In this document: piece after piece, positions 363-7,455 of the stretch
Layout of the letters: each line of letters begins with the position of its first letter
How positions within the stretch are numbered: the first letter of the stretch is position 1
NCBI GenBank assembly: GCA_038245295.1
Contig: JBBRSP010000012.1
Location: 96,001 to 160,000, forward strand
Source of the DNA: Candidatus Binatia bacterium
GTDB taxonomy: Bacteria; Desulfobacterota; Binatia; HRBIN30
Length of the DNA: 64,000 bases
Direction: 5' to 3'
Notes under the pieces: model-generated
What the model saw: the letters and a program-made list of their open reading frames with translations, nothing else
Databases searched by the model: none
Told to the model about the DNA's origin: nothing
Program-made: the position numbers and the translations under genes

Positions 363-3230
363 ATGAACGGACGAATTGCCCTAAGAATGCTTGCGGTAGT
401 TGGGATATTAGGCCTTGGCACCTCGCCCCAAACCGCCGCCGCCCAGTGTACTACAAATGTTCCGTTCAACACCTGCATTCCAGGTGGCGGCTCGAAGAAG
501 ACCGACTGCAACTTCGAGTGGATCATGTCTCCAGCCCCGCCGTTGACCGGCAAGGGCATGCCAAAAAACAAGTACGTCTGTTACGAAGGCGACCTGCGTT
601 GCGACATCGACGGGACGCCCGATAACAACAGCTGCACCGTTGCCGCCAACTTCTGTATCAATAACGAAGACTCGCGCTTCCCCGACTGCCTGGTGACGGC
701 CATCGACGCCTTCCAGGTCAAGAAGCCGAGCTCCACCAGCCTTGATCCGGTTGATAACACCAACCTCCTTGCGCTTGAGTCTGCCGCCGGTGGCGGCGGA
801 ATGGGCGTGTCGATCTTGCGGCAGAATCTGCCGTTCGCGTCTGGTGCGCGCAACTTGAATCACAACATGTGCACCGGCACGGTGCCGATTTTGGTGCCCC
901 TCAAGGTTACCCCAACGGGCAAGCGTCTGACTGGACGACGGTCGCTGAAGATCCAGGTGACGGCCGGCACCGGTTTTATTGATACCGACTCCGTGAAGAT
1001 TCAATGTAAGCCCAGCACCTGCGGCAACGGGATCACGGAAGTGGATCACGAAGCCTGCGACGACGGCAACCGTATCAATGGAGACGGCTGCGATCAGGGT
1101 TGTCAAATCGAGGTCGGCCCGCCGACACCTACAGCGACGCGCACCTCGACCAACGTGGCGACGCCGACGCGAACGCCGACGGCGACACAGAGCGGTAGCC
1201 CGACCAACACGTTGCCGCCGACGGCAACGTTCACGAAGACCAACACCGCGACAATCACGCCGACGCCGACGCGCACGCAGACCGCGACGCGCACCGAAAC
1301 GCCGACCCGCACCGAAACCAACACACGCACTCCAACCATCACCGCAACTCCGTCGCGCACCAACACGCCAACGCAGACGCCGACGATCACGATCACGCCA
1401 ACACCGACATCCACACGTACCAATACTCCGTCGGTGACGCCGACGTTCACACCGACGCTGGCGCCGGACGTGTTCATCGATTCGCCGACTCACGGATCAT
1501 TCTCGACCCTGGCAATTCAAACCGTAGATGGACACGTCACCAACCCGGTGCCGGGCAACATCCTGCTGGTGAATGGAACCCAGGTAAACATCGAGCCGGA
1601 CAACACCTTCTCCTTCAACCTGCCGTTGAGCGCCTCGGCGATCTTCAACCCAGTTGTCGCCGAATTGCAGGTACCGGCGACGGGCTTCAAGGTCCGCGAG
1701 CGCCGCGTCGTCATCCGCGGTCAGTCGGTCGCCGACGGCGCCGTCTCAACCAGCGCGATCGCCTTGCGCATCAACGATACGGGCTTCGACAAACTCGAAC
1801 CGGTGGTGGCAGCCTTGGCGGGCGGCTCGCTGAATCCGCAATCCTTGCTGCCCGCCGGATCGTTCCTGGGAGACTTCTCGGTGCCAATCCTGGGTACCGC
1901 CCACGCGTACGTCGACACGTACCCGCCGGATGGTTCGAGCCAAGGCGGCGTCAGCCTTCAATCCTTCAGCGTGAACGTTGACGCGCAAGCCGGCTTTACC
2001 CAGGTCGACGTCACCTTGAACGGCCTCGAAGCCAACCTTGATTTAACCGGCTCGATAACTTGCGGTCTGCGGGTCAACGCGAGCACCGTTACCATTCGTG
2101 GCAACTACGACATGATTCCGCTGGCCAGCGATCCGGAGAAGCTGGACGTGAACCAGATCAGCGATGTCACGTTGCTCTGGGGCGCGGGACAACCGACCCA
2201 CAGCTGGACCTACGGTATCTGCAACACCTTGTCGTTCCTCGTGGATGCCCTTGTCGATGTCGACGGGCAAGTGAAGAGCCAGCTCGCAAGTGCCCTCAAG
2301 GATCCGGACGGTGCCGGCCCGCAGGACGCGCCAATCGCCGGCGCTCTCCAGGGCGCACTCGGAGGCTTGGCCCTGGGTAGCTCCATCAGTGCAGGCCTCG
2401 GTGTCAACCTGTACATGCCGTTTACCCAGGTCGACGCGGACGTCAACGGCGACTCGTTCGAAATCGGCGTCAGCGCGACCTCGCCAATACATCCGGTTGG
2501 TGCACCCGATTTTACCAGGTCGCTGGTGATCGCCCCTGAACCGTTCCCCGCCTACGGGGCGAATACACCCGGCGGCCGACCGGGGACCGATGTAACCAGC
2601 ACCCCGTACCACCTTGCCCTCGGGTTGTCGGCGACGTCGTTCAATCAGCTCCTGAAATCGTTGACCGAGAAGGGGATTCTGAACATCACCCTGACGGAGA
2701 TCGCCCTGGGCGGCGGATCGCCGATCACAGTCACCTCCGACGTTTTGGGAGTGTTCATTCCGGAGTTCTTCGATCTGCCGGCGGCAACACCACTGAAGAT
2801 CGATATCATCCCAACCGTTTCACCAATCGTAACCGGCTTGCCTGGCCCGGCTGGCGAGCTGGAAGAACTGAAGTTGTCGCAGCTGTTGATCAACATCAGC
2901 GCGGCGGATGGATCGGTCCTGTACTTGAGCGTCGCGGTCGATGTCCGCACCGGCATCAACTTCTCTTACTCCCAGGCCACCAACGCGTTGGCGATCTTGC
3001 TGGGTGCCGTCAACTCCAATGACATCACCACGGTCATTCTCGAGAACGGTATCCACACAGACGAATCGAACCTGCAAGGCGTTGTGCCACTGCTGGTGCA
3101 GCAGTTCCTGCCGAGTCTCACGGGCGGGTTGGGGAGCATCCCGCTGCCTGCGCTCTTTGGGTTGAGCCCGGGCAACGCCCGCGTCAACAAGCAGGGGACG
3201 TTTATGTCGATCTATCTGGACTTCGTTTGA
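363..3230 (+). CDS. large secreted multidomain protein: signal peptide, Cys-rich domain, myxobacterial Cys-rich repeat (DUF4215-like), Thr/Pro stalk, Ig-like domain, C-terminal BPI/LBP-like (TULIP) region
   Basis: ATG 363 gives signal peptide [19 protein letters not shown]...AAA; CGNG..E..E.CDDGN.INGDGC...CQIE repeat at ~1020-1112; TPT stalk; C-terminal motifs [39 protein letters not shown]. Confidence 0.8.
1119..1460 (+). repeat. Thr/Pro-rich low-complexity coding stalk (TPTxT repeats)
   Basis: About 110 aa of [12 protein letters not shown] repeats; explains the Val-rich and Arg-rich shadow ORFs here. Confidence 0.9.
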
Positions 3231-3255: not shown

Positions 3256-3293
3256 AAAAGAACGGCGGGCGCTGCGAAGCGCCCGCCGTTTTC
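3256..3293. terminator. bidirectional intrinsic terminator
   Basis: 13-bp perfect stem AACGGCGGGCGCT-GCGA-AGCGCCCGCCGTT flanked by AAAAG and TTC, between convergent genes. Confidence 0.85.
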
Positions 3294-3318: not shown

Positions 3319-4197
3319 TCAGCTAGCTTCAGAGCTAGAGGCGACAACGGCACTGGGCTCGGTCTCCAAGTCAATCTGGACTTCCAGTGCGGAGGTGACA
3401 CCGCTGGTGCGATAGCTGCCGTCGATCGGTGTCGCGGCGCTGGGTATTGCCGCGGCTGCCACGGCAATATGGTCGTCCGCAATGGCCAAGCCGGTCACCG
3501 GATCGAAGCCGCGCCAACCGGCGCCGGGTAAGAAGATCTCACTCCACGCATGCAGATATCGTGCGTCCGTCTCGGCGCGCGGTCGCTGGTAGCCGCTGAC
3601 GAAACGTGCCGCGAGGCCGACGAAGCGACAAGCCTCGTTGAACAAGACGGCAACATCGCGGCAGGCACCGCTTCGCTTAAGGAGCGTCGTCTCGGGTGAT
3701 TGCGGGGCTCCTTCGATGCGCAGCGTAGGATCGATGGTTTCCGCCAGTCGTCGCGCCAGCATGGTGAGAAACGTTACCGTGCGACCACCCGCCTCGGTAA
3801 AGACCGAGCGCGCCAGCTGATCGACGACTTCCGACTCTTGTTGACGGAATCGATATGGGGCCAGGGCGCGCGCCAAAGGCTCGATGGGATAGAGCGGCAG
3901 CATTGTGGCCCACGGCGCCAGCACGAAATCGAACGGATTCTGGCGTGTCGTCTCGGCGCTGAACTGGGCAATCACGGTCAAGGAATCGGTCCATCCATCG
4001 AAGCCGGCTTCGACAACGGTGTTCCCCTCGAGATCGAGACATTCCGACCAAGAATAAGGTCGAGGGTGAACCCGCAGGCGAAAGTCCCTGACCCGGATGG
4101 TCCCGTCGCTACGCGGTCGAAAGCGCAGGGTGTGCCGGTCGAGCTGAACCGGGGAGGAGTAGCGGTAACGGCTGGTGTGCTGGACTTGGAATAGCAT
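3319..4197 (-). CDS. transglutaminase family protein (Bact_transglu_N + Transglut_core)
   Basis: N-terminal H.SRY.YSSPV..LRFRP; catalytic triad GACRD / HAWSE / GFDP; ARFVSGY. Confidence 0.92.
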   Translation of the reverse strand: MLFQVQHTSRYRYSSPVQLDRHTLRFRPRSDGTIRVRDFRLRVHPRPYSWSECLDLEGNTVVEAGFDGWTDSLTVIAQFSAETTRQNPFDFVLAPWATMLPLYPIEPLARALAPYRFRQQESEVVDQLARSVFTEAGGRTVTFLTMLARRLAETIDPTLRIEGAPQSPETTLLKRSGACRDVAVLFNEACRFVGLAARFVSGYQRPRAETDARYLHAWSEIFLPGAGWRGFDPVTGLAIADDHIAVAAAAIPSAATPIDGSYRTSGVTSALEVQIDLETEPSAVVASSSEAS

Positions 4198-4198
4198 C

Positions 4199-4951
4199 TC
4201 AAGAACTAGCCGGGATCCGTGGCTTGACCTTCAGGCGGCTGAGCAGGGGGGCGGTCCAGTCCGACGAAAGCTCGCCGACCGAGCGTCTCAATCGTTCCTG
4301 CCACCACGCCGAGATCTCGGCGAGGTCCGACTTCTGGTAGCTGTGCCGCACGAGCTCGAAAGAGTCACGCGCGCACAGGACGACTTCGAGGGGGAAGTCG
4401 ACGTCAGCGGCACTGATGCGCGTCGAATCAAACGCCAAGCAGCCCACTTTCAGCGCAAAGGCCATCGGATCTTCGTATTTCAACGTTCGATCCAGCACCG
4501 GCTTGCCGTAGCCGGGAGCGCCGATGATCTGATACGGCGTGCCGGCACCGACCTCAACCCAATTGGCCTGCGGATACACCATGTACAACTTGTGTTCGCG
4601 GTCGCGGTCAAACTGCCCACCGACAAGGGCATGAAAAGAAAATGACAGGCCGCTTTCTTCGAGCGCGGCTCGATCCTCCTCCGCGACACGCCTGACCTGA
4701 GCAGCCAACGCGTTCACGCCTTTGAACAGCCGATCGAACGATCCACCGCTCTCGTCGATGACTTCCTCGAAGTACGTCAGAGCCTTGTCTCGCACCGAGC
4801 GCAGGCCCGACGTCATGATGAACATCGCTTGCCTATCCGCCACGTGCGTGTAGATCTTGCTCGCCGTAATGCACTCACTGCCGCTGGTGATCAGGCTGTC
4901 CGCCATCGCCACCAATCCGTCTTCCACCTTGATGCCCAGACAAAACGTCAT
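4199..4951 (-). CDS. anbu: proteasome-type Ntn protease Anbu
   Basis: MTFCLGIKVEDGLVAMADS (N-terminal Thr nucleophile), YQIIG..YGKPVLDR, FDSTRIS..DV.FP; canonical operon context. Confidence 0.9.
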   Translation of the reverse strand: MTFCLGIKVEDGLVAMADSLITSGSECITASKIYTHVADRQAMFIMTSGLRSVRDKALTYFEEVIDESGGSFDRLFKGVNALAAQVRRVAEEDRAALEESGLSFSFHALVGGQFDRDREHKLYMVYPQANWVEVGAGTPYQIIGAPGYGKPVLDRTLKYEDPMAFALKVGCLAFDSTRISAADVDFPLEVVLCARDSFELVRHSYQKSDLAEISAWWQERLRRSVGELSSDWTAPLLSRLKVKPRIPASS

Positions 4952-5943
4952 TGTTGAGATCCCGCCTCGAATGCTTGGCCGCTCATGGAGGTTACGCCCG
5001 GCACAATCGAGAAGAATGTCTCTTGAATGGCGCCGCCCAGGAGATTGAGTCGCGTCTGAAGGTCGTCGAGATACCCGTGTACGCCGCGCTGCAGAATGCC
5101 CCCGGCGTCGGTAAACGCCAACTCGGCCCGCAGTTGACCGAGTCGCTGCTCGGCCAGGTTGCAGAACGTTCCGCTCGAAGTCCCGGAAATCGCGTGCAGC
5201 GATTCATCCGCCGCAATCAGACAGAACTGCACCGACCGCGGAAACTCACGGTCGAGCAGAAGGAAGCGGACGATGCGGTCTGGCTCGACCCGACCATAAC
5301 GCTGCCGATACATCTGCAATCCACTGGCGGAATTTAGAACCGCCGCCCACTGGATGTCGTCGAGGGGTGTGCCCACGTAGGTGCCTTCGGGCAAGAGGGC
5401 GAGAAATTTGACGTCGAGGATCCGCGTCGTCTTGTCGGCGCGCTCCAGCTTCCGCCCCACCCGGCAGAAGTGCCAGGCCTCGCCGTGCGACATTGTCGAG
5501 TCGGCAATGCCGACGAACAGGTGACTGGCACGGCGCACCCGTTCGAAGAATTCGTGTGAGGCGGCCGGGCGACCGGCCCGCGCCGCATCCTGCACCAGGA
5601 GATAGAAGGTATTCAGTTGCTCCCACATCTCCGTGCTGATGACATCGCGCACCATGCGCGCGTTTTCGCGAGCAGCGCTGATACACGACAGGATGGCGTT
5701 GGGATATCGCGTGTCGAAGGCGAGGAATTCGATGACGTTCTTGGCGGTGGCGGATGGATACCGTTCGTAGAAATATTCCCGGTCGCCGGTCGTATTGACC
5801 AACGCCTCCCACTGCACACGAATCGCATCGGGCGGCAAATCGGGAATCAACTGACGATTCACTTCCACGAAGCGAGCTACGTTCTCGGCCCGCTCGATGT
5901 AGCGACTCATCCAATGAATGGAATCAGCAACGCGACTCAGCAT
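4948..5943 (-). CDS. alpha-E domain protein (DUF403)
   Basis: MLSRVADSIHWMSRYIERAEN, ARENAR..RD.IS.EMWE, LERADKT.RILDVK, FPRS. Confidence 0.93.
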   Translation of the reverse strand: MLSRVADSIHWMSRYIERAENVARFVEVNRQLIPDLPPDAIRVQWEALVNTTGDREYFYERYPSATAKNVIEFLAFDTRYPNAILSCISAARENARMVRDVISTEMWEQLNTFYLLVQDAARAGRPAASHEFFERVRRASHLFVGIADSTMSHGEAWHFCRVGRKLERADKTTRILDVKFLALLPEGTYVGTPLDDIQWAAVLNSASGLQMYRQRYGRVEPDRIVRFLLLDREFPRSVQFCLIAADESLHAISGTSSGTFCNLAEQRLGQLRAELAFTDAGGILQRGVHGYLDDLQTRLNLLGGAIQETFFSIVPGVTSMSGQAFEAGSQQ

Positions 5944-5949
5944 AAACGA

Positions 5950-7455
5950 TCACAGCTCTCCGGCTGCCCCCACTTCCTCCGGTTCGGTGGCCGTGGTGGC
6001 CGTCTCAACCCGCGGTCCGACAACCCAGGTATCCTTGCTGCCACCACCCTGCGACGAGTTCACGACCAGCGACCCTTTACGCAGCGCCACACGAGTCAAT
6101 CCTCCGGGCAAGACGTAGATATCGCGTCCATACAGCACGAAGGGCCGCAGATCGATGTGACGCCCTTCAAAGTGGTCGTCCACCAACACCGGTGCGCGCG
6201 ACAGACTCAGCGTTGGCTGCGCGATGTAGTTGCGCGGATCGGCGGTGACTCGCGCCGCAAATTCCTCGCGCTCCTTGGCCGTCGAGTGCGGGCCAACCAA
6301 CATGCCATAACCGCCGGATTCATTGGCGGCTTTGACGACAAGGTCCTCGAGGTGCTCCAGCACGTACGAACGATCCATCTCATCAGCGCAGACGTAGGTC
6401 GGAACATTGGGAAGGATGATGTCTTCATCCAGATAGTATTTCACCAGCTTCGGCACGTACGCGTAGACAACCTTGTCGTCGGCAACACCGGTGCCCGGTG
6501 CGTTGACGATGGCGATGCGACCGGCGCGATACACGCTCATCAAGCCAGGGACACCCAGCATCGAATCGGGACGGAATGTCTCCGGATCGATGAAATCGTC
6601 GTCGATGCGGCGGTAGAGCACGTCGACCCGACGCAAGCCCTTGGTGGTGCGCATGCAGACGTACCCGTCGGCAACCACGAGATCGCGACCTTCGACGAGC
6701 TCGACACCCATGTTTTGCGCCAGGAAGGAGTGTTCGAAGTACGCCGAGTTGTACATACCAGGCGTCAGCACGGCGACCGTTGGCACGGAGGCGGTGGGCG
6801 GCGCAACGTACTGCAGCATTTCCAGAAGGCGACTCGGGTAGTCGTCGACGGGGCGGACCTGGTACGCTTCGAATGCCTCCGGGAATGTGCGCTTCATGAT
6901 GTGCCGATTCTCCAGCACATAGGAAACGCCAGACGGACAACGCAGATTGTCTTCCAGCACGTAGATCGTTCCATCGCGATCACGCACCAGATCCGTGCCG
7001 GTAATGTGGCACCACACACCGCGCGGCGGATGCAATCCGACACACGCGGCACGAAAGGATTTCGCAGAGTTCAGAATCTCGGCGGGGATAATCCCGTCCT
7101 TTAGAACGTGTTGATCATGGTACAGATCGTCGATGAACATGTTCAGCGCGCGGACGCGTTGCTTCAACCCGCGCTCGATTCGATCCCAGTCCGCCGAGCT
7201 GACGATGCGCGGAACGATATCAAAGGGAAAAATCCGCTCCTGGCCACCCTCGTCGCCATACACCTTAAACGTAATACCCATCTGCAGCAGGAGCCGCTCG
7301 GCGGCTCGTTGCCGTGAGCGGAGCTCCTCCTCAGAGAACGACTCGAGGCGTTGGAAGAGAAGATCCGCATCAGCGCGCGGGCTGCCCGCCGGCGCTAGAA
7401 GCTCGTCGAAAAACTTGTCTTCATCGTAGGTGTAACGCCAACCGTGCTGCTCCAT
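5950..7455 (-). CDS. circularly permuted type 2 ATP-grasp protein (DUF404/DUF407)
   Basis: [72 protein letters not shown]. Confidence 0.95.

Follow-up and report, generated by a model that had tools for sequence, protein, structure and literature searches.

A gene near the start of the DNA analyzed here (the window, 64,000 nucleotides of a Candidatus Binatia genome) encodes a 955-residue protein whose carboxyl-terminal region, residues 462-955 (1746..3227, plus strand), is almost certainly a complete two-barrel module of the BPI/CETP type, judging from its predicted structure together with structural and profile comparison. The best explanation for its function is that of an exported, surface-tethered lipid-capture protein, CETP/PLTP-like rather than bactericidal-BPI-like; we hold it tentatively, at a little below an even chance. 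Two traits of its family can direct experimental work: the lipid tube has an Ig domain fixed in front of it, and the acidic body carries a nonpolar tip.

In the predicted model, a single chain forms two TULIP barrels, the N-barrel (about 1776-2369, plus strand) and the C-barrel (about 2613-3227, plus strand), separated and joined by a central β-sheet. BPI is the best match to this region by both structure and profile, and every one of the leading structural matches binds or transfers lipid. The predicted structure thus upholds an earlier sequence-only reading, which had proposed an apparently complete two-barrel fold of the BPI/LBP/CETP type. Profile comparison, suggested in that reading as a check, points the same way: the family profile matches a single human protein, BPI, weakly (E 0.0047) and in the C-barrel only. 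Homology to eukaryotic BPI/LBP/CETP at the sequence level therefore appears to be present, weak, and confined to the C-barrel. On the query itself PF02886 scores 14 bits, below its cut-off of 23, and PF01273 is not listed at E≤10. PF02886 gives E≤0.05 for at least 14 of 106 homologues, and its cut-off is exceeded by one of them, P0168, with 33.6 bits.

The gene (363..3230, plus strand) stands alone, downstream of a small gene in the same orientation, and its double-TULIP region is single copy in the source genome (6.63 Mb, 62.7% GC, 96.6% complete). Codon-position GC of the reading frame is 0.55/0.51/0.77. An in-frame GTG at 354 (plus strand) provides an alternative start, preceded by the purine-rich AGAGGGGG at 339-346 with a spacing of 7 nt. 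In the public database the gene is called as P0003, 901 aa, with its start at residue 55 of the 955-residue frame; window positions 363-524 are omitted, so that both the signal peptide and the initial Cys residues of the next domain are lost. A 14-bp hairpin with a T-rich tail (3260..3291, plus strand; fold z = -6.0, with none of 200 shuffles equally stable) lies beyond the stop codon. It is probably an intrinsic terminator at the boundary between the TULIP gene and a convergent transglutaminase operon, and is absent from the output of a consensus terminator scan. That operon (3319-7455, minus strand) is ordinary, and comprises four genes: circularly permuted ATP-grasp; alpha-E; a 250-aa gene without a Pfam match at E≤1e-4, which we take to encode a proteasome-type peptidase; and transglutaminase.

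Five elements precede the barrels. Residues 1-27 (363..443, plus strand) read by eye as a Sec-type signal peptide, with a basic N-region, a hydrophobic core, and Ala-Ala-Ala before the cut; no lipobox is visible by eye, and close orthologues carry similar leaders. The N-module (444..1013, plus strand) is a 190-aa Ig-like β-sandwich, rich in Cys and in Lys/Arg, which has no family name and recurs in multiple copies in Binatia secreted proteins. One Myxococcus-type cysteine-rich acidic repeat (1014..1118, plus strand) matches TIGR02232 at 41.8 bits against a cut-off of 20.8; it also matches PF13948 (DUF4215) with E 6.6e-6, slightly below that family's cut-off. Next come a Thr/Pro-rich stalk (residues 253-365; 1119..1457, plus strand), in which Thr accounts for 44% and Thr, Pro, and Ser together for 67% of residues, and an Ig-like domain (1458..1727, plus strand) that belongs to the family core. 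The by-eye leader, the Cys-rich modules, and the lipobox-bearing relatives agree in predicting an exported, extracytoplasmic protein. Secretion and stalk mounting had likewise been called from sequence; the description of the unit as a two-barrel module stands as well, but missed the Ig-like domain that is part of it.

The family comprises at least 308 sequence clusters that lack annotation and are missed almost entirely by Pfam. Members occur in three of the four other sampled genomes from the window's class or order and in none of 146 genomes across the remaining phylum, and a single-protein scan retrieved one named locus, at 45% identity, labelled Candidatus Binatia. Where the database supplies a name, it is Myxococcota/Myxococcales, Candidatus Limnocylindrales (once), or a generic one. 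Of 206 full-length matches, 198 have the Ig domain ahead of the tube. The remaining eight match from their first residue on, and so look N-terminally cut. Beyond the Ig domain the amino termini diversify. Among 194 classified, 57 show a lipobox pattern, 59 are otherwise short, 36 are otherwise long, 36 carry at least two Cys-repeat motifs, and 6 carry the N-module; a Cys lies within positions 13-48 in 103 of the 116 short-N members. In a quick FastTree phylogeny of 82 rows, which came with long-branch warnings, the seven N-module rows share a 12-row clade, at 99% local support, with dockerin-like and other N-termini. This indicates that the N-terminus is exchangeable, and the family can be read as combining a constant lipid-binding core with interchangeable tethers.

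Two further kinds of variation were seen. At three loci (L014:7210-11339, L026:6465-10807, and L027:6207-12587) the TULIP gene adjoins a co-oriented gene for a secreted stalk protein whose N-terminus is similar to that of the TULIP protein itself; the shared segment has the look of another exchangeable N-terminal module, distinct from the first. (An FG-GAP/UnbV gene is next in two of these loci, and the L014 copy of the stalk protein has no Pfam match.) At the other end, several homologues (P0037, P0045, P0069, and P0135) bear C-terminal extensions of roughly 230-360 aa with no clear Pfam family. The shorter type of extension ends in a motif that, by eye, seemingly also occurs in the N-terminal part of one N-module protein of the source genome (G000:C35:25127-28516).

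Bacterial double TULIPs resembling BPI, fused ones included, are already published. DUF4403 (PF14356) was described as a full-length BPI homologue (Levine 2019, PMC6791001); like the present family, it is a bacterial TULIP, full-length and pseudo-dimeric, and its members are mostly predicted lipoproteins, as are many here. The bacterial AFDB entry A0A2D5ZNG0 clusters with human BPI at TM 0.81 (Barrio-Hernandez 2023, PMC10584675). TipA of Bdellovibrio bacteriovorus (Bd2538) has been crystallized as a lipid-loaded double TULIP, and fused-domain homologues of it are noted (10.1101/2025.09.09.675085). These three reports contradict the earlier premise that bacterial TULIPs are single-domain. PF14356 is absent from the query, from the families shown for 106 homologues, and from the source genome; by this profile evidence, the query family is a different sequence family from DUF4403. 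TipA, as described, is about 570 aa long, forms dimers by way of an extra hairpin, and has a co-encoded adaptor, TipB, whereas the query gene stands by itself and includes an Ig domain, stalk, and N-module. (This distinction is drawn from the description: TipA is not among the structural matches listed, and may be absent from those libraries.) No adjacent gene for a small β-sandwich adaptor of the TipA/TipB type was found, the TULIP gene being followed by the terminator-like hairpin and convergent operon. The fused Ig domain may fill such a role in cis.

The nearest known proteins remain human BPI (PDB 1BP1/1EWF), CETP (2OBD), and LBP (4M4D), represented by Pfam PF01273 plus PF02886, and the query lies under the cut-offs of both families. 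It differs from all three in having an Ig domain directly before the tube and in being mounted on a stalk and N-module, whereas they are free. It differs from BPI further in being strongly acidic, in lacking a cationic N-half, and in having its own tip Cys pairs. The protein is thus neither BPI proper, nor DUF4403, nor, as judged by the adaptor gene, half of a TipA/TipB pair, nor a Pfam member by score, and is probably still a lipid carrier of the BPI/CETP fold. A literature search found nothing naming this family; a member may already appear in Fig. EV2 of the TipA report or as A0A2D5ZNG0.

Charge bears most directly on function. The TULIP region has a pI of 4.13 (16 K/R, 44 D/E) and the N-barrel a pI of 4.05 (6 K/R versus 21 D/E). 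Across 109 aligned family rows the TULIP pI has a median of 4.05 and a maximum of 4.71, and no member is net-positive in either barrel. The presumed distal tip of the N-barrel, located from the order of strands, is nonpolar. It includes the turn of the first hairpin (1863..1913, plus strand; model strands E137-143/E147-153), which forms a Cys-loop-Cys in 94 of 108 rows; the query lacks this Cys pair and keeps the nonpolar turn. The Cys-closed loop is 81% nonpolar (counting Gly, Pro, and Ala) and 1.6% K/R. A second pair, Cys567 and Cys620 (2061-2063 and 2220-2222, plus strand), is intact in 108 of 109 rows, and presumably forms a disulfide at the same tip. Together the query's tip segments (39 aa) contain no K/R, 4 D/E, and 15 large hydrophobes; four or more K/R occur in the tip segments of 11 of the 109 members. 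BPI proper has a conserved N-barrel disulfide; in a non-significant N-barrel alignment, the second Cys of the Cys567/Cys620 pair falls on no BPI Cys.

Could the protein nevertheless bind LPS, or damage membranes, of other Gram-negative cells in the manner of BPI? BPI is its best structural and profile match, Myxococcota are among the named homologues, and TipA, from a predator, binds lipids and bilayers and destabilizes the latter (10.1101/2025.09.09.675085). However, LPS binding and killing by BPI depend on its highly cationic N-terminal half (PMC6293271), and acidity is common to all 109 aligned members, whose tip is hydrophobic and in most cases closed by Cys. This makes LPS binding of the BPI kind unlikely, although LPS contact through divalent-cation bridging is possible. 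The string "predat" occurs nowhere in the main text of the Binatota paper (PMC8262859). An LPS-binding or membrane-damaging protein of this type is a very improbable reading. The same charge pattern argues against LPS scavenging of the BPI kind, part of what had been suggested from sequence, and neither the companion suggestion, a possible harvesting of lipids from other cells, nor predation drew support from this analysis. An acidic body with a nonpolar tip instead suggests lipid capture like that of CETP/PLTP. CETP is reported to enter HDL by its hydrophobic N-barrel end (PMC10027838), a mode of action that is disputed (PMC5507252). Neutral or zwitterionic lipids are more likely candidate ligands than LPS.

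Genomic context offers a different possibility: that the protein carries the cell's own lipids (phospholipids, hopanoids, or carotenoids) in the periplasm or outer membrane, its stalk crossing the periplasm rather than reaching outside. Across families, 21 loci revealed no conserved neighbour, partner gene, or transporter. In five of them (L019-L023) a few kb, including a Kup transporter gene, separate the orthologue from a hopanoid cluster. One flank has squalene synthase-like, amine-oxidase-like, nucleosidase-like, radical SAM/DUF3463, and squalene-hopene cyclase genes; the other has a P450 and an efflux-like operon. These are the orthologues closest in architecture, but they come from two genera, with four of the five loci from one, so the proximity amounts to synteny among kin. 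The source genome contains lpxC, two secretins, and a squalene-hopene cyclase domain, the last on a different contig from the TULIP gene. Also consistent with carriage of own lipids are the proposal that DUF4403 and YceB handle envelope lipids (PMC6791001) and the lipoproteins among many relatives; indeed, short-linker lipoproteins could equally well face the periplasm, which counts against a surface location. On the other side are the Pfam modules found on homologues (dockerin/EF-hand, TSP3, EGF, DUF4215, malectin, L-lectin, LamG, and CBM96), which are typical of exposed proteins. (One homologue is a nuclease/phosphatase fusion.) Moreover, the gene has a patchy distribution: at E≤1e-3 it occurs in 25 of 41 related genomes, in one of these through the Ig part only, and it was not found in the other 16, unlike what is expected of a core envelope transporter. 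Carriage of own lipids is therefore unlikely on balance, if the strongest competitor to surface capture.

The N-module may be the anchor. It occurs on at least 21 proteins of the source genome (paralogues in G000 C1, C2, C3, C4, C5, C8, C10, C12, C15, C28, C35, C47, and C49) and, among the genomes sampled, in Binatia only. Disulfide-rich, it is found at the N- or C-terminus or internally in proteins with Thr/Pro stalks, and module plus stalk bear many unrelated payloads. This distribution makes it a candidate lineage-specific anchoring or sorting domain. The same arrangement, a stalk with a terminal binding domain, is that of adhesins, and the lectin and EGF-type fusions of homologues would suit an adhesin or matrix protein that held on to hydrophobic surfaces or membranes by its nonpolar tip and lumen and brought about no net transfer of lipid. 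Both barrels are full length in 206 homologues, however, which is more than adhesion needs, and the leading structural matches are lipid carriers and binders throughout. Adhesion alone is thus quite unlikely.

Surface lipid capture, the preferred explanation, would proceed in steps. After Sec export, the N-module would hold the protein on the envelope, in place of the lipid anchor of many relatives, and the stalk would extend the reach of the tube by some tens of nm. The nonpolar, Cys-stapled tip would dip into membranes, vesicles, droplets, or organic films, loading lipid into the lumen. On this reading, lipids would be acquired at the surface of the cell. The tube would then pass its lipid back to the membrane of its own cell and so supply an extensive β-oxidation repertoire (53 acyl-CoA dehydrogenase matches in the source genome). 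This hand-over step is without a candidate, given the lack of a conserved partner or transporter in the 21 loci and of a FadL-type channel (PF03349) in the 96.6% complete genome. For this diderm as a whole, a route for long-chain lipid uptake is not evident.

For a large family without annotation, these results supply a firmly predicted fold and a function open to test. The multi-copy N-module may be a more original lead than the lipid tube. A bolder proposal, somewhat unlikely as it stands, is that the N-module is an undescribed, Binatia-specific dockerin- or SLH-like tag that mounts at least 20 enzymes and adhesins, along with the lipid tube, on Thr/Pro stalks; the result would be a foraging array on the cell surface, whose BPI-type tube would draw lipid from the environment for a lineage of uncultured lipid degraders. 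A further possibility, highly doubtful, is that this Binatia/Myxococcota family, with its sequence-level resemblance to human BPI, is close to the bacterial origin of eukaryotic BPI/LBP/CETP. The Binatota are described as aerobic methylotrophs and degraders of alkanes and fatty acids (PMC8262859). If the protein does draw lipid from the environment, it would help to explain how Binatia gain access to hydrophobic substrates.
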